Shown here: in pieces, positions 651 to 62,672 of the stretch | Numbering within the stretch: the stretch's first letter is position 1 | How the letters are laid out: each line of letters opens with the position of its first letter | Assembly: GCA_043719155.1 (NCBI GenBank) | Contig: JAYSUJ010000022.1 | Coordinates: 10,448 to 74,447 of the forward strand | DNA length: 64,000 nucleotides | Source: a bacterium | GTDB lineage: Bacteria > Patescibacteriota > Minisyncoccia > Phycocordibacterales > UBA5272 | Direction of reading: 5' to 3' | Translations under genes and position numbers: made by a program | Notes under the pieces: model-generated | The model's input: only the letters and a program-made list of their open reading frames with translations | The model's database searches: none | Told to the model about the DNA's origin: nothing

Positions 651-791
651 TCATCTTTTCTTCTTGTGCCTTTTTCTTGCACGCTTTAGAACATCACACG
701 GGTTCTTATCGGCCCATACAAAGTACGCAGCAGTGCAGATTGGCGGCAACAAGACAAAGGCTCCTATTAGAAATTTGAGCACCGTGTCCAT
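651..791 (-). CDS. Small hypothetical membrane peptide (46 aa, hydrophobic core, basic KRARKRHKKKR tail), GC-elevated
   Basis: ATG 789-791 preceded by GGAGA; translation MDTVLKFLIGAFVLLPPICTAAYFVWADKNPCDVLKRARKRHKKKR; stem-loop+T-run downstream on minus strand (~605-640). Confidence 0.3.
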   Translation of the reverse strand: MDTVLKFLIGAFVLLPPICTAAYFVWADKNPCDVLKRARKRHKKKR

Positions 792-11272: not shown

Positions 11273-11692
11273 TTACTTCTTTCTTAAATTTTTAAAATAG
11301 GCACCTCTTTCTGTCTCACTTTCAAAAGTTTCTAGGTCAAATTCGCTATTGTTTTCTTTATTAGCTAATTTTGCCCTCTCTAAACTTTCTTCAAAAGTTT
11401 TTAAATCTGCGTTTTCAGTAACAAGTACCTGATCTGCTAAGATCACTACCTCTAAAATTTCCTCTTTTGAGCTTTGTTTTACGTCTATCACCCCACCTTG
11501 CACCAAAAACCTTTCTTCACTTTTGTTCTCTTTTCTGACAACAATCTCACCAATGGAGACCACTGTTACAAGCGGTGCATGGTTTCTGAGTACAGTAATT
11601 TCTCCTGCTTGAGTCGGTACTGTAAAAGAGGCAACTTCACCACTAAAAAGCTTTGTGTCAGGGGTTAAAATTTTGAGTTTAAATGTGTGCAT
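11273..11692 (-). CDS. atpC: F1 ATP synthase epsilon subunit
   Basis: MHTFKLKILTPDTKLFSGEVASFTVPTQAGEITVL.. epsilon beta-sandwich + C-terminal helices; follows atpD. Confidence 0.9.
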   Translation of the reverse strand: MHTFKLKILTPDTKLFSGEVASFTVPTQAGEITVLRNHAPLVTVVSIGEIVVRKENKSEERFLVQGGVIDVKQSSKEEILEVVILADQVLVTENADLKTFEESLERAKLANKENNSEFDLETFESETERGAYFKNLRKK

Positions 11693-11693
11693 T

Positions 11694-13103
<1,410 letters not shown>

Positions 13104-13207
13104 TTAATTATAGCATTTTTTTATTTTATTCTAAAGTTTTTTATATAGACAGAGTTATTTATTTGTGTTATTATATATTTAGTGTCAACAGTGGAAAGGA
13201 TGATTTT

Positions 13208-13423
13208 ATGCTGAGTATTACCATGACACGGAAGGCAAAGTTCCTTCGCAATATGCTTATTGTTATCTTGATAACCACCTTAGGTCTAGCGGAGCTGCAA
13301 GGCAACGCAGGACTTAGCTCTATCCAGTGGATAGGGGTTGTAGTTGGAAAGTGGGCGGGTTACCTGCTCACTATCTACACAGGTTGGAAACTCTTGCTGG
13401 CAATGTTTGCGAAGGGAAAGTGA
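13208..13423 (+). CDS. Small hypothetical membrane protein (71 aa; ORF-track ORF starts 13163) antisense within ATP synthase operon, GC-elevated
   Basis: RBS GGAAAGGA 7 nt before ATG 13208; MLSITMTRKAKFLRNMLIVILITTLGLAE... two hydrophobic helices; followed by terminator. Confidence 0.35.
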   Translation: MLSITMTRKAKFLRNMLIVILITTLGLAELQGNAGLSSIQWIGVVVGKWAGYLLTIYTGWKLLLAMFAKGK

Positions 13424-13442
13424 GCTGTTAAATTGGCTTGCG

Positions 13443-13474
13443 CCGCTGGTTTCCCAAGATCAGCGGTTTTTTTA
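13443..13474 (+). terminator. Plus-strand intrinsic terminator inside atpG-atpD gap
   Basis: ccgctgg-tttcccaagat-cagcgg + TTTTTTT; on minus strand the T-run precedes the stem so it is not a minus-strand terminator. Confidence 0.55.
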
Positions 13475-14362
13475 TGCATTTGCACCCGCTGAGATTTCGG
13501 CAATTTCTTGAGTAATGCCATCTTGGCGAACTTTGTTGTATTTAATCTTCAAAGCATGCAACATTTCCCCTGCACTTTCATTTGCTCTTTTCATAGCAAA
13601 GCTGCGACTTGAGTTTTCGGAGGCTCTACTTTCTAAAATAAAAGAATACATAATCATTTTGATAATTTTAGGAATTGTTTTATCTATTAAGGTTTCCAAG
13701 TTTGGCTCAAAAGTGTAAATTTGATTTGAATTTGTAGCTACACTTTGCAGACTATCACCCAAAGTGTCAGTATAAATATTTAAATTTGAATTGACTGGGT
13801 AGAGAGTAACCGCACGTGGTTCGAAAACACCCATCTTTACAAAGTTTGTATAAACAGCATGAATCTTAGACACTTCATTAGACAAAAAGAAATTTCTAAC
13901 AAAGTTCTCAACTTTGGAAACCTGAGTTGGCTGTAAAAGCTTTTCTATCTCAAGGTAAGACAGCTTGATTTCTAAATCCAGTTTTCTTGCAATTTTTTCT
14001 GCGAATTTACCAAAGCAAACAGCATATTTTAAGTTTGGATTTTCATCTTTCAATCGCTTTGTTTTTTTATAAATGTTTGTGTTGAAAGAACCACACAAAC
14101 CTTTATTTGAAGCAAATAAAATTACTAGTTCAGGAGAGCTATTTCCACCTTTTTGACCATCAAAGAAAATATGACTTTCTTTACTTTCTTTTTTTATTTT
14201 ACTTACAACAAACTTAATTTCCTTAATGTACTCAGATATGTCTGTCACCCCACTCACAGATTTTTTCATTTTAGAAACCGCCACCATTTCCATGGTTTTA
14301 GTTATCTTCTTGATAGAAGTTGTTGCTTTTATTTTTTGTTTTATTATTTTTGTATTTGCCAT
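13472..14362 (-). CDS. atpG: F1 ATP synthase gamma subunit
   Basis: MANTKIIKQKIKATTSIKKITKTMEMVAVSKMKK.. and conserved C-terminal helix. Confidence 0.9.
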   Translation of the reverse strand: MANTKIIKQKIKATTSIKKITKTMEMVAVSKMKKSVSGVTDISEYIKEIKFVVSKIKKESKESHIFFDGQKGGNSSPELVILFASNKGLCGSFNTNIYKKTKRLKDENPNLKYAVCFGKFAEKIARKLDLEIKLSYLEIEKLLQPTQVSKVENFVRNFFLSNEVSKIHAVYTNFVKMGVFEPRAVTLYPVNSNLNIYTDTLGDSLQSVATNSNQIYTFEPNLETLIDKTIPKIIKMIMYSFILESRASENSSRSFAMKRANESAGEMLHALKIKYNKVRQDGITQEIAEISAGANA

Positions 14363-14388: not shown

Positions 14389-15897
14389 TTACAGAACAAT
14401 ATTGTTTAGCTCAGCAAAGCTTTTTAAAACCTCTTTCATCTTTGATATCTCGTCGTCTTTCCACTTTCCTGAATCTAGATCTTTTCCTAAATCTTTATAA
14501 TTTAAGTCAAAGTATTTATGCAGTTTATTTTCAACTTCTTTTACATTTTTAACATCTACATTTTTGAAAAATCCTTCGTTTAGCGCAAAGAAAGAAAGAA
14601 CTTGTAAAGCTACCGAAAGTGGCTCGCCATTGTTTTGCTTTAGTAATTCCACACTTCTTTTTCCATGCTCAATAGTTTTTTTAGTTTCGGGGTCTAGGTC
14701 AGAGTCAAATTGAGAGAAAGACTCTAACTCTCTATATTGAGCAAGTGAAAGTTTTATCTTTCCTGCATTTTTCTTCATCGGACTTGTTTGAGCCGAGCCA
14801 CCTACACGAGAAACTGAAAGACCAACGTCAATTGCTGGTCTTATACCTTTGTAAAACAAGTTTGAGTCCAAGAATATTTGTCCATCTGTAATAGAAATTA
14901 CGTTAGTTGGAATATAAGCAGAAACATCTCCTGCTTGTGTTTCTATAATAGGAAGTGCTGTTATAGACCCACCTCCTGCCTCTGTATTTCGACGACATGC
15001 CCTTTCTAAAAGTCTTGAATGAATATAAAAGACGTCACCAGGGTACGCTTCACGACCGGGTGGACGTTTCAAAAGTAGTGAAAGCTCACGGTACGCCACA
15101 GCATGCTTAGATAAATCATCGTAAACAATTAGTACATCCTTCCCTTGATCCATAAAATATTCACCGATTGCTACACCTGTGTATGGAGATAAATATGAAT
15201 AAGCTGGGCCTTGAGAGATCCCCGCTAAAACCACAACTGTGTAAGACATTGCCTCAGCTGCTTTTAGGTTTTCAACAACTTGGGCAATTTTAGATTCCTT
15301 TTGACCAATAGCAACATAAATACAAATTACATCTTTACCTTTTTGGTTTATGATCGTATCTATTGCAACTGTAGTTTTACCAGTTTGACGGTCACCAATG
15401 ATAAGCTCTCGCTGTCCACGACCTACTGGGATCATGCCGTCAATTGCTTTTACCCCAGTTTGCAGTGGTTGGGTTACTGGCTCACGCTTCATCACTCCTG
15501 GGGCAATTTTTTCGACAGGGTACATCTTGTCTTTTTTAATTTCCCCTAGCCCATCAATTTGCTCACCAATTGCGTTTACTACACGCCCTAAAATTTTGTC
15601 TGATACAGGTACCGAAAGCAATTCTTTGGTGCGTACAACCTCATCACCTTCAGAAATTTTAGCGAATGTGTCAAAAACTACTACCCCTGCGAAATCTTCT
15701 TCCAAGTTTAGTACTAAGCCTTTAACTTTATTTTTCCCGATTACAACAGTTTCCGAAGACATGACACCTTTCATGCCTGAAACTTTTAAAATACCGTCTT
15801 GTATAGATTCGACAGTTCCAATTTCACTTTCGACTGGTGAAAATTTAATTTCTCCAATTTTTATTTCTAAATCTTGTATTATTCTTTGTATTGACAT
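14389..15897 (-). CDS. atpA: F1 ATP synthase alpha subunit
   Basis: GDRQTGKT Walker A, 502 aa. Confidence 0.97.
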
Positions 15898-17154: not shown

Positions 17155-18027
17155 CTAAACACCACAACTGTTCGTAACCTCTAGAAACTTTTCAATATCC
17201 CCGTCTTTTATTCCTCTAAAAAAATCCGTCATGTTGTTGTCAAAACCAATGTCATTTACATAGTGTAACTCCGCAAAGACTATATGCTCCTTTGTTAGTG
17301 CTTCGTCGCCGGAAAAACCAAAGTAGTTTTTAATCTGAGAAATTCTCTCCATTATTTCATTTGGCCTTTGCATGTATTCTCTGTCTTCTAAATTTTCAAT
17401 GAACATAAAGTTCAAGCCTTGATTAAAATATAAGCCTGCTAGACTGAAATCCAATTTTCTTAGCATGTGACCTTTTTCATGTGCAACTGCAACATTCATT
17501 GCTTTTAGAGGATATACCTTAGCATTTAATTTTTTCCCCCAATTTGGAACAACTCCTTTTTCCATTGTAGATTCCAGAACACTTTTTTTTGAAAGGTCAA
17601 CTTTTGTGTATGTATTGGATATCTCAATTTGTAGATCCAAGATTCTACTTAGCAGCTCTTTACTGTATGGAGTTTTATTGTAAAATGCAGCAGAAGACTC
17701 ATTGATAGCCTCATTCACCATGTCTCTCAATTCTTTGGGTATACTTACATCTACAGGGTTTTGCACATCCTGAAGAAAAGTATGGAAAAACGGTGTTCTG
17801 ATTAAGGTATACATGCCATCTGCAAATTCTCCGGGATTGTTCATTTGCGAATTTAAAAGCAGGTTCAAAAACTTTTCTCTCACTTTCAAATTTCGCAAAC
17901 GTGAATACATAAGTTCGCAGTCATTACATTCTAAATTTGGCTTTAGAGTTTCCGAATATTCACCACCTAAAGGTGATTTAAGTTTTTTAACTACTTTGTG
18001 TTCTGACTTTTGACTCGGAAATAACAT
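17155..18027 (-). CDS. Hypothetical soluble protein with HExxH (HEKGH) putative zinc-metallopeptidase motif, inserted between atpB and atpE
   Basis: AVAHEKGHML at residues 183-187 (nt 17467-17481); no signal peptide; 290 aa. Confidence 0.55.
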   Translation of the reverse strand: MLFPSQKSEHKVVKKLKSPLGGEYSETLKPNLECNDCELMYSRLRNLKVREKFLNLLLNSQMNNPGEFADGMYTLIRTPFFHTFLQDVQNPVDVSIPKELRDMVNEAINESSAAFYNKTPYSKELLSRILDLQIEISNTYTKVDLSKKSVLESTMEKGVVPNWGKKLNAKVYPLKAMNVAVAHEKGHMLRKLDFSLAGLYFNQGLNFMFIENLEDREYMQRPNEIMERISQIKNYFGFSGDEALTKEHIVFAELHYVNDIGFDNNMTDFFRGIKDGDIEKFLEVTNSCGV

Positions 18028-19740: not shown

Positions 19741-19890
19741 ATGGATGCACTTCTACTTGCACTAACTCTGGCCTTTGCTGGTGCCACAGGATTTTTTTTC
19801 CTTGAGCATAGCAGCGAATGGAAGATGCTTGTTAGTGGCACCATGATGCTGGTCTCACTCCATCTATTCCTCAAGAGGACAAAGGTGTGA
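19741..19890 (+). CDS. Small hypothetical two-helix membrane peptide (49 aa), GC-elevated
   Basis: GGAG 8 nt before ATG; MDALLLALTLAFAGATGFFFLEHSSEWKMLVSGTMMLVSLHLFLKRTKV; terminator follows. Confidence 0.3.
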   Translation: MDALLLALTLAFAGATGFFFLEHSSEWKMLVSGTMMLVSLHLFLKRTKV

Positions 19891-19922
19891 GAGACTCAGC
19901 AAAAATGGGCTTGAAGCAAAAG

Positions 19923-19953
19923 AGCCTGTTAAAACGCAGGCTCTTTTTATATT
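19923..19953 (+). terminator. Intrinsic terminator after 19741 peptide gene
   Basis: aagagcctg-ttaaaacg-caggctctt + TTTAT. Confidence 0.5.
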
Positions 19954-21859: not shown

Positions 21860-22132
21860 ATGTGGGAAATCACGGAATGCCTAGTGCAAAGTGACATGCT
21901 TCTCAAAGGACTACTCGCGAAAGGATGGGAGCCTTTCTCAGTTCTTTCCAGAAAGGCTTTCCAAAATGGAGCTAACTTCGGCCCAGTCTGCTTTCTTCGT
22001 CGAAAGATTGAAGAAGAACTGGAGGTCAAAGCTCTTTTTACTCAAGATCAAGTCAAGGCACATCTTGCTGAAGGCTGGTCCTGGGTAGGATCCCAAGAAA
22101 GCATTGTTTACCTTTCGCGACCGAAACAATAA
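21860..22132 (+). CDS. Small hypothetical protein (90 aa; ORF-track GTG start 21842), GC-elevated island antisense between ligA and gatC
   Basis: RBS AAAGGAAA 5 nt before ATG 21860; overlapping ORFs on both strands reflect high GC; could alternatively be structured RNA. Confidence 0.3.
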   Translation: MWEITECLVQSDMLLKGLLAKGWEPFSVLSRKAFQNGANFGPVCFLRRKIEEELEVKALFTQDQVKAHLAEGWSWVGSQESIVYLSRPKQ

Positions 22133-22154
22133 ACTCGTTCCCGTTCTACCACTA

Positions 22155-22187
22155 GGGGAGTTCAGCACAGCTGAACTCCCCTTTTTA
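22155..22187 (+). terminator. Intrinsic terminator
   Basis: ggggagttcagc-acag-gctgaactcccc + TTTTTATTT. Confidence 0.6.
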
Positions 22188-40403: not shown

Positions 40404-40655
40404 ATGCCCAAAATGCCCTCAAAAGCAAGAAAGCACGCAAAACCTTGGAACACTTCTGAGGTTTACTTTTACTGCTTTAACCCAGGAACTGGACACGGCA
40501 AACTCTTTTGCCGGACCAATCAACAACAGTTCTGCTTTACCCGGCAACAATGGAAAGATGCCGGTTTTCCTCGGCTTCTTTGCGAACAAAGCTTGCTAAT
40601 TAATTGGGTGACAGAACCAAATGGTGAGCTGAAAGTCCTAAGTATGGGCAAGTAA
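40404..40655 (+). CDS. Small Cys-containing hypothetical protein (83 aa), GC-elevated, downstream of tRNA-Leu
   Basis: RBS GAAAGGAAA 4 nt before ATG 40404 (ORF track uses TTG 40377); MPKMPSKARKHAKPWNTSEVYFYCFNPGTGHGKLFCRTNQQQFCFTRQQW..; terminator follows. Confidence 0.35.
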   Translation: MPKMPSKARKHAKPWNTSEVYFYCFNPGTGHGKLFCRTNQQQFCFTRQQWKDAGFPRLLCEQSLLINWVTEPNGELKVLSMGK

Positions 40656-40677
40656 ACGCACATTTACTAGCGCTCGC

Positions 40678-40706
40678 GGTCAGGAAACTGACCGCTTTTT
40701 TTTATA
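40678..40706. terminator. Intrinsic terminator (convergent with mnmA)
   Basis: gcggtcag-gaaa-ctgaccgc + TTTTTTTTT. Confidence 0.6.
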
Positions 40707-50880: not shown

Positions 50881-50989
50881 TTTTGTTTTTTAAATGATTT
50901 AGTGTAAAATGTCAATACTTGTGGTAAATCTATCACAAAGTGATTTACGCTTTGTCGGTAACCCAGATAAAACGCTAAAGGAGACATCC

Positions 50990-51370
50990 GTGTCAAACTA
51001 TGCTTTCTATTTACTGGTTCTGCTTGGTTTGTGCCACTGGCTTGGTGACTTTTCACATCTGACTACAAAATGGATGCAGGAAGCCAAGCGTTACGGACAT
51101 CCGTTCGAACCCATCCTTGCACACGCATGTGCGCACGGAGGCTTGATGTGTCTCGCACTGCAACTAAGCAGTGCAAGTCAAACCAGGATACTATGGACTT
51201 GTTTGTTTCAAGTGTTGATGCACTTTTGCATCGACATGACAAAAGGCGCGCTAAATGGGCTGTACCCCAGCTTGGAAAACCAAAGAGAGAAACCATATTG
51301 GTATATCTTTGGCTTCGACCAGTTTTTGCACTTCTTTACTATCTTGGTCATGGTTAAAGCCCTAACCTGA
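50990..51370 (+). CDS. Hypothetical polytopic membrane protein with conserved His/Cys residues (126 aa; ORF-track ATG start 50909)
   Basis: RBS AAGGAGA 5 nt before GTG 50990; MSNYAFYLLVLLGLCHWLGDFSHL..HACAHGG..HFCID; GC-elevated. Confidence 0.45.
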   Translation: MSNYAFYLLVLLGLCHWLGDFSHLTTKWMQEAKRYGHPFEPILAHACAHGGLMCLALQLSSASQTRILWTCLFQVLMHFCIDMTKGALNGLYPSLENQREKPYWYIFGFDQFLHFFTILVMVKALT

Positions 51371-51387: not shown

Positions 51388-51420
51388 AGTGGTCGGCAAC
51401 GCAAGTTGCCGACCTTTTTA
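51388..51420 (+). terminator. Intrinsic terminator, copy 1 of duplicated hairpin
   Basis: gtggtcggcaac-gcaa-gttgccgacc + TTTTTA. Confidence 0.65.
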
Positions 51421-51844: not shown

Positions 51845-52162
51845 ATGGCAGACCAAGACAAAGAGCTCGACGAAATCCTGGCAAAACTCAAGAGCGCCGG
51901 AATCGGAGTCTCCGTCATGCAAGGATGGGACGTCGCCAAGTTGTTGTCCGAAGTAACTCGCGAGGACAACAACCAGTTCCCTCCGGAACTGACGGCAAAA
52001 GCTGCTGGTATGCGCGACGCCTTCTTCCAAGAATACGAAGTTGTCGTAAAGGCCCTAGCGGTCAAACACGGCATTGATCTCCTTGATGGAAATCTCGAGA
52101 TCGCCATCGATATGGTTGAGCTCGCCAAGGCCGGCAAGTCGCAAGGTGAGCCGGCAGCCTGA
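51845..52162 (+). CDS. Hypothetical acidic soluble protein (105 aa), GC-elevated
   Basis: RBS GAAGGAAA before ATG; MADQDKELDEILAKLKSAGIGVSVMQGWDVAKLLSEV..; terminator copy 2 follows. Confidence 0.45.
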   Translation: MADQDKELDEILAKLKSAGIGVSVMQGWDVAKLLSEVTREDNNQFPPELTAKAAGMRDAFFQEYEVVVKALAVKHGIDLLDGNLEIAIDMVELAKAGKSQGEPAA

Positions 52163-52184
52163 TAGCTCTCAGGCAACTCTAGAA

Positions 52185-52216
52185 AAAGTAGGTCGGCAAC
52201 GCAAGTTGCCGACCTT
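52185..52216 (+). terminator. Intrinsic terminator, copy 2 of duplicated hairpin
   Basis: gtaggtcggcaac-gcaa-gttgccgacc + TTTTAT; 27/28 nt identical to 51388-51415. Confidence 0.65.
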
Positions 52217-55130: not shown

Positions 55131-55286
55131 ATGAACTTCAATCCAGAGCTAACAGTATGGTTTATGTTAGGCTTCATTGCCTACGTTTCCTACAAGGCAT
55201 ACAAGGATGGAGATTTCTTTATTTCTTGTATCTTTAGTGGATTTACTTACTCACTGCTTATATTTACATGTTCTAGATACATTTGA
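55131..55286 (+). CDS. Small hypothetical membrane peptide (51 aa), not in ORF track
   Basis: GGAGTAA before ATG 55131; MNFNPELTVWFMLGFIAYVSYKAYKDGDFFISCIFSGFTYSLLIFTCSRYI. Confidence 0.25.
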   Translation: MNFNPELTVWFMLGFIAYVSYKAYKDGDFFISCIFSGFTYSLLIFTCSRYI

Positions 55287-55314
55287 ATTCATTCTTTGTT
55301 GTTAGAACAATACA

Positions 55315-55351
55315 AAACCCGTGAAATTTTTTCAAAAAATTTCACGGGTTT
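55315..55351. terminator. Bidirectional terminator (long perfect inverted repeat) between convergent genes
   Basis: aaacccgtgaaatttttt-c-aaaaaatttcacgggttt. Confidence 0.6.
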
Positions 55352-60428: not shown

Positions 60429-60689
60429 ATGACAAAAAATGTCAGCATGAGAGATCTGGATGAGGCCGAAGAGCTAGCACTGGAACAACTTGTGAAAGCT
60501 CGTAAAGAGAGGCAGCAACGCATCGGTCCATTGGCCCAAGCTCTGCAGCTTGAAATTAAAATTGCAGAAAAAAAGCTGAAAAATCTACAGGAAAAATGTG
60601 CCGCAGCTAGCCACAGGCCAGGTGCTGGTTCACATATAGATGTGCATATTTGGGTTTGCAGTATCTGCGGCGCTAACTGTAAACCATAA
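60429..60689 (+). CDS. Small hypothetical protein (86 aa; ORF-track start 60369) with coiled-coil and C-terminal CxxCxxxC, GC-elevated
   Basis: RBS AGGAAAG before ATG 60429; ..HIDVHIWVCSICGANCKP; terminator follows. Confidence 0.35.
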   Translation: MTKNVSMRDLDEAEELALEQLVKARKERQQRIGPLAQALQLEIKIAEKKLKNLQEKCAAASHRPGAGSHIDVHIWVCSICGANCKP

Positions 60690-60699
60690 GATCGGCAAT

Positions 60700-60735
60700 G
60701 GGGCTTGGCAAGATTGCCAAGCCCCATCTTCTTTT
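60700..60735 (+). terminator. Intrinsic terminator
   Basis: ggggcttggcaa-gat-ttgccaagcccc + ATCTTCTTTTT. Confidence 0.6.
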
Positions 60736-62146: not shown

Positions 62147-62311
62147 ATGCCACCACGCAAGTCCAATGGCAAACCACTGACTGAAAACAAAAAAACTCCA
62201 AACAAACGGGGCGCCTCAAAACGCTCACGTCACATGCGGCGACGTGAAGAGCAGACAACAAACCTGCGAAACCTCTCGCGCAAGCAGGACGACAGCCAGT
62301 CCGCAAATTAA
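62147..62311 (+). CDS. Small highly basic hypothetical protein (54 aa; ORF-track TTG start 62087), GC-elevated
   Basis: RBS GGAAGGAAAA 4 nt before ATG 62147; MPPRKSNGKPLTENKKTPNKRGASKRSRHMRRREEQTTNLRNLSRKQDDSQSAN; terminator follows. Confidence 0.35.
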   Translation: MPPRKSNGKPLTENKKTPNKRGASKRSRHMRRREEQTTNLRNLSRKQDDSQSAN

Positions 62312-62331
62312 CTTTCCAAACAAATTTTTTT

Positions 62332-62360
62332 GGCGGCGGACCGAAGGTCCGCCGCTTTTT
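62332..62360 (+). terminator. Intrinsic terminator
   Basis: gcggcggacc-gaa-ggtccgccgc + TTTTT; second weaker hairpin cgact-caaa-agtcg with T-runs on both sides at 62386-62412. Confidence 0.6.
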
Positions 62361-62672
62361 CCTTTTAAAACTTTTAAAAAGAAAAAACGACTCAAAAGTC
62401 GTGTTTTTTAATCGTCATTTTTTCTTTAGGGCTATCTGCCGTAAACCTTAGAACGAGTCCAAGGTGGGAACCGCAAGATAAACTAATATTTGTGCGAGTA
62501 AACGCGCAGCAAGTTGACCTAATATGAAGCTCCCTTAAAATATTTTGTAAAGTTTTATAAACAAATAGCCCTGTAAATTATTTTATGCTTATTTTTATTT
62601 TTTTGCAATATTGACGCTAGGTACAATGTGTAAAACTATAAAAGTAAAGTTGACTTTTATTTTAAAATAAAA

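Follow-up and report, generated by a model that had tools for sequence, protein, structure and literature searches.

The DNA analysed here, referred to below as the window, is a stretch of 64,000 nucleotides that is AT-rich (GC 35.9%) and in which 45 of the 50 gene-sized open reading frames (ORFs) lie on the minus strand. On this strand the ATP synthase genes follow one another in the order atpA, atpG, atpD and atpC (Table 1), and the genes for the gamma and beta subunits of F1 are separated by a gap at 13089-13471 which, by gene coordinates, measures 383 bp, as against the 380 bp given in an initial annotation of this DNA. Since a Logan contig, which is an independent assembly, matches the gap at 383 of 383 positions, it is not an artefact of one assembler. 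Judged by its AtpG, the DNA comes from an uncultured bacterium of Parcubacteria/Paceibacteria type (Patescibacteria): the closest genome matches to this protein come from metagenome-assembled genomes labelled Paceibacteria, Paceibacterota or Saccharibacteria, and their AtpG identity does not exceed 76%.

The initial annotation had placed in this gap a small plus-strand gene of elevated GC with signals of its own, starting at 13208 and closed by a terminator acting on the plus strand, and every one of these elements was recovered: a promoter-like site, a Shine-Dalgarno-like (SD-like) motif, an ORF of 71 codons and an intrinsic terminator, in that order (Table 1). In a consensus scan the promoter-like site agrees with the consensus at 10 of 12 positions, the TG extension being present, and would start transcription at about 13181, giving a predicted transcript of approximately 13181-13474 with a leader of 27 nt. 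A -10 box of the same TGnTA...T type also precedes three of the other small ORFs described below (u19, u21 and u62) and many host genes. The ATG at 13208 stands 7 nt from the motif GGAAAGGA and is the sensible start, because the alternative TTG falls within the predicted promoter. At the other end of the unit a G+C-rich stem-loop is followed directly by a U-run; the stem begins 18 nt after the stop of the ORF and the T-run overlaps the stop codon of atpG. Read on the minus strand, the same hairpin is followed by CGCAAGCC and by no T-run, so that termination should be one-directional. Both the promoter and the terminator are predicted elements, recognised as consensus matches only. Across the unit, local windows of 100 nt reach a GC content of 0.45-0.52, and the ORF itself has 47% GC, compared with 36% in the window and 20-29% in ordinary spacers.

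Table 1. Positions in the window of the ATP synthase genes, of the elements at the atpG-atpD junction and of the cassette ORFs
Feature	Position	Strand	Remarks
atpC	11273-11692	-	
atpD (F1 beta subunit)	11694-13088	-	downstream neighbour of the gap
atpD promoter-like site	13107-13135	-	TTTAGA, 17 nt, TG-extended TATAAT; -10 ends 19 nt before the ATG at 13088
Inserted segment, approximate extent	13145-13467		relative to closest relatives; flanked by TTTTTTAT at 13137-13144 and 13468-13475
Cassette promoter-like site	13146-13174	+	-35 TAGACA 13146-13151, 17-nt spacer, TG-extended -10 TATTAT 13169-13174
SD-like motif GGAAAGGA	13193-13200	+	7 nt 5' of the ATG at 13208
Small ORF, 71 codons (cassette ORF u13)	13208 (ATG)-13423	+	71 aa, MLSITMTRKAKFLRNML...AMFAKGK; alternative start TTG 13163 (86 aa)
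Predicted intrinsic terminator	13442-13474	+	11-pair stem-loop 13442-13467, 5 G-C pairs, then T7
atpG (F1 gamma subunit)	13472-14362	-	PF00231; stop codon (13472-13474) under the cassette terminator T-run
atpA	14389-15897	-	
Cassette ORF u19	19741-19890	+	49 aa
Cassette ORF u21	21860-22132	+	90 aa
Cassette ORF u40	40404-40655	+	83 aa
Cassette ORF u51	51845-52162	+	105 aa
Cassette ORF u55	55131-55286	+	51 aa
Cassette ORF	60429-60689	+	86 aa
Cassette ORF u62	62147-62311	+	54 aa

Taken by itself, the coding status of the ORF (u13 in Table 1) is ambiguous, given its alien codon usage, the folding of its plus strand and the absence of a call by gene callers, which skipped it; annotated protein sets do not contain it. 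Among dinucleotide-shuffled versions of the gap, 1.4% have a longest ORF that reaches 86 aa and 7% one that reaches 71 aa. The frame from the ATG at 13208 is open over 92% of the distance from this codon to the terminator, ending only 18 nt short of it, and 1.3% of the shuffles do as well (P = 0.013). Its GC content at the three codon positions is 0.46/0.39/0.56, against a host GC3 of about 0.28, and in codon usage it scores a log-likelihood ratio of -0.075, where host genes score 0.17-0.37.

The product is predicted to be a basic membrane-type peptide in the form of a helical hairpin, with one clear and one weak transmembrane (TM) segment. Residues 12-30 have a mean Kyte-Doolittle hydropathy of 1.77, while the second segment, in which Lys47 and Lys61 lie, has a maximum of 1.26; the peptide carries +7 net and has basic residues at both ends. 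Of the two TM helices proposed in the initial annotation, that of residues 12-30 is clear, whereas the second is weak and amphipathic. AlphaFold2, run on the single sequence, gives a hairpin of two helices (residues 2-32 and 38-69) with a mean pLDDT of 74, and a Foldseek comparison of this model with the PDB returned generic helical hairpins only, the best at E = 1.9. We regard a small accessory membrane protein unrelated to ATP synthase as the most likely identity of the predicted peptide.

The peptide was searched against protein collections, as the initial annotation had suggested, and no genuine homologue came to light. No family match was obtained for the 71-aa ORF in Pfam (E ≤ 10), PHROGs, NCBIfam or PADLOC, nor any relative of the peptide in a k-mer search of 5.8 billion proteins. 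A full phmmer search of 1.84 billion representatives gave a single hit, P0001, at E = 3.5e-8; this was rejected as a spurious ORF running over a 141-bp tandem repeat, with TGA read as sense, on a 1-kb contig, its score being the sum of three weak repeats and thus an artefact. At neither the DNA nor the peptide level was a relative found among JGI metagenome contigs, IMG/VR or phage and plasmid records; the cassette has no match in phage or viral DNA or protein, and no prophage context was detected. None of the six reading frames, including all three of the minus strand, matches Pfam. As there is no homologue at any level, selection on the frame cannot be demonstrated from these sequences. On the RNA side, Rfam 15 searched at E ≤ 10 over 12500-14100 gave only chance-level microRNA and lncRNA hits (E ≥ 3), the whole window gave no hit at the Rfam gathering score, and ARAGORN found neither a tRNA nor a tmRNA at the cassette. 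A likeness by eye of GGAAAGUGGGCGGG to a strand of P4 of RNase P was dropped, as this segment pairs locally in the predicted fold.

Several identities within the ATP synthase cluster were also considered and rejected. In frame 2 the string AEYYHDTEGK...YLH.RL resembles the F1 alpha and beta subunits, but the BLASTX value was 0.06 and concerned two proteins only, and neither Pfam (ATP-synt_ab) nor the PDB provided a match for a fragment of atpD or atpA. The c subunit of this genome is also 71 aa long; no BLASTP alignment to the host AtpE was obtained and no c-subunit motifs are present, so that a divergent c subunit was discarded. The ORF has no Pfam match at E ≤ 10 to AtpI (PF03899), AtpZ (ATPase_gene1, PF09527) or the c subunit (PF00137), and it lies on the strand opposite to the operon. 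A pseudogene of the co-directional genes that relatives carry at this site found no signal in tblastn. Nor does the unit look like a miniature transposable or IS-derived element, since no terminal inverted repeats were seen and a second copy occurs neither in the window nor among 88 loci.

Comparison with related genomes indicates how the unit came to lie where it is. In three of the closest relatives fetched the spacer between atpG and atpD is short and empty (64 bp in L002, 78 bp in L003 and 55 bp in L085), AT-rich, and free of both the ORF and the hairpin. L002 is close enough for its AtpG and AtpD to be 76% and 94% identical to those of the window, and when the window is aligned with L002 and L003, some 300 surplus bases appear in it directly after the atpG stop. 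If 13145-13467 is deleted, the spacer takes on a length like that of the relatives and the atpD-proximal promoter is retained. The 8-nt direct repeats TTTTTTAT (13137 and 13468) and TTTTATGC (13204 and 13470) are at chance level, and the flanking TTTTTTAT pair, which is T-rich and stands beside the T-run of the terminator, may be a coincidence. The element was absent from all relatives examined, which agrees with the proposal in the initial annotation of an insertion tolerated within the operon. Since not one AtpG with an identity between 76% and 100% was found among 5.8 billion proteins, the element can only be called species-specific. Judged from these alignments, it is a species-specific (lineage-specific) insertion, bounded by the stop of atpG on one side and by the promoter of atpD on the other.

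This junction has received other genes in related organisms. Among 74 genome loci holding both atpG and atpD, the gap is 161 bp or less in 53 and 610-1224 bp in 19, and most of these 19 large gaps are filled by a NUDIX hydrolase (PF00293) of about 188 aa. The gap holds two NUDIX copies in L006, a membrane protein of 222 aa instead in L017, and no clear ORF in L009. ORFans of 90-99 aa occupy the junction in L060 and L061, and the closer relatives L083, L086 and L088 carry ORFans with lengths of 140, about 138 and 113 aa, which on direct comparison show no relationship, either among themselves or to the element of the window. The cassette and all this cargo occupy one and the same site, which extends from the stop of atpG to the promoter or start of atpD. 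Unlike the cassette, however, the genes of the relatives are co-directional with atp, have a host-like composition and no terminator of their own, and are unrelated to it in sequence. In the window, as in L002, L003, L086 and L088, the ATG of atpD is preceded at 14-28 nt by a TGnTATAAT box, which is kept even where a gene has been inserted. Because of this conserved extended -10 box the junction has the look of a boundary between transcription units, not of an internal point in one obligatory message; the operon of this clade apparently breaks here into two units of transcription, which would be why insertions are tolerated there. On the evidence of these loci, the atpG-atpD junction is a permissive cargo site in the clade.

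The cassette is also one of several of its kind. All ten of the strong plus-strand intrinsic terminators in the window, picked blind to ORFs, lie 6-28 nt after the stop of an ATG-initiated ORF of at least 49 aa, where the null rate is 5% per random position (binomial P = 9e-14). Two of the ten linked ORFs are recognisable genes, one for an RRM protein and the other (50909-51370) for a DUF3307 membrane protein which matches PHROG 2470 (phrog_2470), of the category 'moron, auxiliary metabolic gene and host takeover'. The window holds at least eight such mini-genes (Table 1), most of them on the minority strand amid minus-strand genes. In this list of eight, which was assembled post hoc, although the terminator test itself is ORF-blind, an SD-like purine motif precedes every ORF, as against 2 of 48 host genes (Fisher P = 3e-8), and GC3 is 0.38-0.63, as against 0.23-0.35 in the host (P = 7e-6). 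Five units (u13, u21, u40, u51 and u62) have the core AAGGA at a distance of 7-8 nt from the ATG, the terminator follows the stop by 8-28 nt, and promoter-like -10 boxes predict leaders of 27-56 nt in those units, five in number, of which the upstream sequence was inspected. The products are mutually unrelated, and those that could be searched are orphans. Short hydrophobic peptides are encoded also by u19, u55 and 651-791, while the products of u51, u62 and u21 are hydrophilic. In 528 kb of the atp neighbourhoods of relatives, essentially none of the terminator-linked small ORFs was both GC3-elevated and SD-led. Going by these regularities, the class behaves as real, independently transcribed small genes, of which the cassette at the junction is a typical member.

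The start signals of the class differ from those of the host. Practically no host gene has an SD; in many, a -10 box lies at 7-36 nt from the ATG, and an exact TATAAT lies upstream of 10 of 48, where 3.8 are expected. According to a published survey, no more than about 48% of the 16S rRNAs of Parcubacteria have a detectable anti-SD motif CCTCCT (PMC9297842); the window contains no 16S rRNA gene. With host genes nearly devoid of SD and about half of Parcubacteria lacking the anti-SD, the SD-like motif of the cassettes may not work in this host.

Structured RNAs are classically recognised as GC-rich islands of AT-rich genomes that have a promoter and a terminator and fold in a strand-specific manner, and the unit could be read as the gene of a small non-coding RNA, about 290 nt long, in which the ORF is incidental. 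The plus strand does fold with z scores of -2.7 to -3.7, against -0.7 to -1.4 on the minus strand, the GC content reaches 47-52% in a genome of 36%, a protein homologue is absent and the codon usage is unlike that of the host. But protein genes of the class fold alike on their sense strand (-3.1 for the RRM gene, -2.7 for DUF3307 and -3.1 for u51), and 5% of background chunks reach a z of -3 or lower. Since known protein genes of the class fold equally low, RNA structure is here no argument for a non-coding RNA. There is also no credible Rfam match at E ≤ 10 and no tRNA or tmRNA, the SD-like motif is well spaced, and the frame runs without a stop almost to the terminator, from which 18 nt separate it, as is the rule in the other units. 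We therefore consider an RNA gene unlikely. That the segment is inert, either a decaying foreign fragment or a dead, unexpressed cassette, would fit its foreign composition, its single-copy and species-specific occurrence and the weak 8-nt repeat that flanks it; yet neither the open frame nor the promoter, SD, ATG or terminator shows any damage, the spacing of all of them is correct, and no frame of the six matches a protein family, as one would expect of a gene fragment, the resemblance to AtpD having been rejected. Inert DNA seems very unlikely on these grounds.

The small size, hydrophobicity and strong positive charge of the peptide, combined with its own promoter and terminator, recall a membrane-damaging peptide of the type I toxin or holin kind, part of a selfish addiction-type module that would be silenced by antisense atp read-through or by an undetected small RNA. 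SD and AUG lie inside a predicted 5' hairpin with its stem arms at 13182-13187 and 13224-13229, the peptide is an orphan of narrow distribution, and other units of the class (u19, u55 and 651-791) likewise yield short hydrophobic peptides. At 71 aa and with two helices, however, it is longer than typical type I toxins; a consensus scan shows no minus-strand promoter-like site in 13200-13480, and the one at 13197-13170 faces away; Pfam, NCBIfam, PADLOC and PHROGs offer no match; and the hydrophilic products of u51, u62 and u21 show that the class is not a toxin family. A toxin module is in our judgement quite unlikely. The initial annotation had also raised the possibility of antisense regulation of F1 stoichiometry, whereby collision with read-through from atpG to atpD, or pairing between the cistrons, would tune the ratio of gamma to beta and epsilon. 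The unit is indeed convergent with atpG, its terminator abuts the atpG stop, and the reverse hairpin carries no U-tract, so that atpG transcripts probably read through it as antisense RNA. This proposal is not borne out by the rest of the evidence: beyond the atpG stop codon the predicted transcript overlaps no atp coding sequence, a conserved -10 box belongs to atpD itself, units of this build occur at seven or more other loci of the window that are unrelated to ATP synthase, and the element, being absent from all relatives examined, is no part of a conserved regulation. Of the readings considered here, a regulator of the atp genes is the one we find hardest to credit.

The feature is thus probably a self-contained orphan small-gene cassette of about 325 bp, comprising promoter, SD, 71-codon ORF and terminator, inserted into the genome, moron-like in its build and one of at least eight. 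Such a cassette would be transcribed from its own extended -10 promoter of the host type, convergently with atpG, and its terminator would halt transcription on reaching the stop codon of atpG, so that no antisense RNA would run into this gene. In the other direction the reverse hairpin, with no U-tract, would not stop atp transcription, and atpD would have its own promoter in any case. The cassette could thereby be insulated and probably neutral for ATP synthase. A one-way terminator, along with a separate promoter for atpD, would explain why the unit is tolerated at the junction, and antisense orientation combined with one-way termination may let such units persist between host genes. It can also be speculated that read-through from atpG, which would be antisense to the cassette mRNA, dampens its expression.

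More broadly, this chromosome of the candidate phyla radiation (CPR) might have two expression regimes, one of SD-less core genes with short leaders and another of laterally acquired mini-genes, GC3-rich, SD-led and terminator-capped, which sit at unit boundaries, mostly in antisense. The atpG-atpD cassette would then be a copy-independent member of a previously undescribed moron-like system, possibly encoding peptides of symbiosis or conflict; we put this forward as a conjecture, and a rather unlikely one. For ATP synthase regulation the cassette brings nothing new. It adds an unannotated orphan small-protein gene, as predicted, to a CPR genome, and it points to the atpG-atpD junction in Paceibacteria as an apparent boundary of transcription units at which cargo has been accepted repeatedly. 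The wider pattern is the more useful one: GC3-rich, SD-led mini-genes in an SD-less genome, most of them missed by gene callers. If expressed, they would offer a handle on translation start in Parcubacteria, many of which have no anti-SD, and a source of lineage-specific small membrane or basic peptides in episymbiotic bacteria.

Among the closest known systems are the small membrane proteins of atp operons. AtpI, AtpZ (Atp1) and AtpE share with it a membrane-type helical hairpin, here a predicted one, within an atp cluster, and AtpE of this genome has the very same length of 71 aa. The cassette differs from all of them in its opposite strand, its own signals, its absence from relatives and its lack of a Pfam match, and from c subunits also in that the peptide has no GxGxGxG motif, RNP loop or carboxylate.

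Peptides of type I toxins are usually shorter than 60 aa, with one TM segment. Type I toxins such as Hok, TisB, Fst and AapA1, and class II holins, are like the cassette product short, hydrophobic and cationic, with their own promoter and a strong terminator, a structured mRNA (predicted in our case) and a narrow distribution. The cassette peptide, in contrast, has 71 aa and two helices, of which one is a clear TM segment (Kyte-Doolittle 1.77) and one is weak, with a charge of +7, and neither a cognate antisense promoter nor a family match was found for it.

Phage morons are autonomous units of promoter, ORF and terminator inserted between genes, often with a deviant GC content. Like them, the cassette surrounds a single ORF with its own predicted promoter and terminator, is wedged in a conserved module, deviates in composition from its surroundings (GC3 0.56, against 0.23-0.35 in the host) and encodes an orphan product, and its class neighbour DUF3307 matches a moron-category PHROG. 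Unlike them, it resides in a cellular chromosome, flanked by atp genes and with no prophage context detected; it opposes the flanking genes, and it displays an SD-like signal in a host whose genes have none of their own. The cassette is most likely an orphan example of a familiar kind, an autonomous small-gene cassette with the build of a moron.

The mini-gene of 71 codons that stands between atpG and atpD has counterparts elsewhere in the window, where seven further units of the same build, all on the + strand and each ending in a strong terminator 8–28 nt past the stop codon, were found together with a similar small ORF outside this set (see the table). Most of these further mini-genes are + strand genes flanked by − strand host genes, and they share an elevated GC3 (0.38–0.63), product sizes of 46–105 aa, a promoter-like site, and a purine-rich Shine-Dalgarno-like motif 7–8 nt 5′ of the ATG. 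Most lack annotation, and the protein collection holds only the 90-aa and 105-aa products, both as singletons. The sole phmmer match to the 71-aa peptide of the atpG-atpD cassette (P0001, 192 aa) proved to be false, a spurious 'protein' obtained by translating positions 268–670 of L082, a 1-kb JGI contig, with TGA as a sense codon; this stretch is a tandem repeat whose 141-bp unit occurs in 2.9 copies of 99% identity.

Small ORFs of the window resembling the atpG-atpD cassette
Feature	Position	Strand	Remark
Mini-gene unit	19741-19947	+	same build as cassette
Mini-gene unit	21860-22182	+	same build as cassette
Mini-gene unit	40404-40695	+	same build as cassette
Mini-gene unit	51845-52215	+	same build as cassette
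Mini-gene unit	55131-55351	+	same build as cassette
Mini-gene unit	60429-60727	+	same build as cassette
Mini-gene unit	62147-62356	+	same build as cassette
Small ORF	651-791	-	outside the set of seven

Two neighbouring GC-rich + strand genes, encoding a DUF3307/phrog_2470 membrane protein (50909–51370) and the 105-aa orphan (51845–52162), end in identical copies of the 24-nt terminator hairpin GGTCGGCAACGCAAGTTGCCGACC (51391–51414 and 52190–52215), a hint that modules have been shared or duplicated among the cassettes. The uvrC-like and clpB-like genes are separated by a 622-bp spacer, in which the terminator belonging to the basic 54-aa ORF is succeeded by another hairpin that also has a T-run (62384–62410); the remainder of the spacer, 62420–62530 included, matched no Rfam family.

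Across the whole window, strong intrinsic terminators are all oriented to the + strand, yet the − strand holds 45 of the 50 genes; its few terminators are two-way hairpins, each used jointly with a convergent + strand gene. Shine-Dalgarno motifs are nearly absent from host genes (2/48), many of which carry a TATAAT-like box 7–36 nt 5′ of the ATG, suggesting short leaders. Two distant Paceibacteria (loci L018 and L023) share, near the atp operon, an ORF of 94–95 aa (beginning MYLAYFQGNATLTRL and MTTYIAYFDRSNVK, respectively; − strand as the locus is oriented) that is preceded by a Shine-Dalgarno motif (AAGGAG and TAGGAG, respectively) and followed by a terminator (stems at 926–947 and 803–828, reverse-complement strand); therefore, certain small genes of some relatives use Shine-Dalgarno sequences.

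The atp operon of the window also contains a 290-aa ORF (17155–18027, −), without a Pfam match, which separates the genes for the a subunit (atpB) and the c subunit (atpE). Among relatives, the atpG-atpD gap of many Paceibacteria is occupied by a conserved NUDIX hydrolase gene (~188 aa, PF00293) running in the same direction as atpG and atpD (loci L006, L010-L012, L014, L015, L019, L022, L024, L030, L034, L038, L041, L046, L056, L064 and L072), in two tandem copies in L006. A 222-aa membrane protein takes the place of the hydrolase in L017, and the gaps of other loci hold ORFans, of 90–99 aa in L060 and L061 and, unrelated, of 113–140 aa in L083, L086 and L088.
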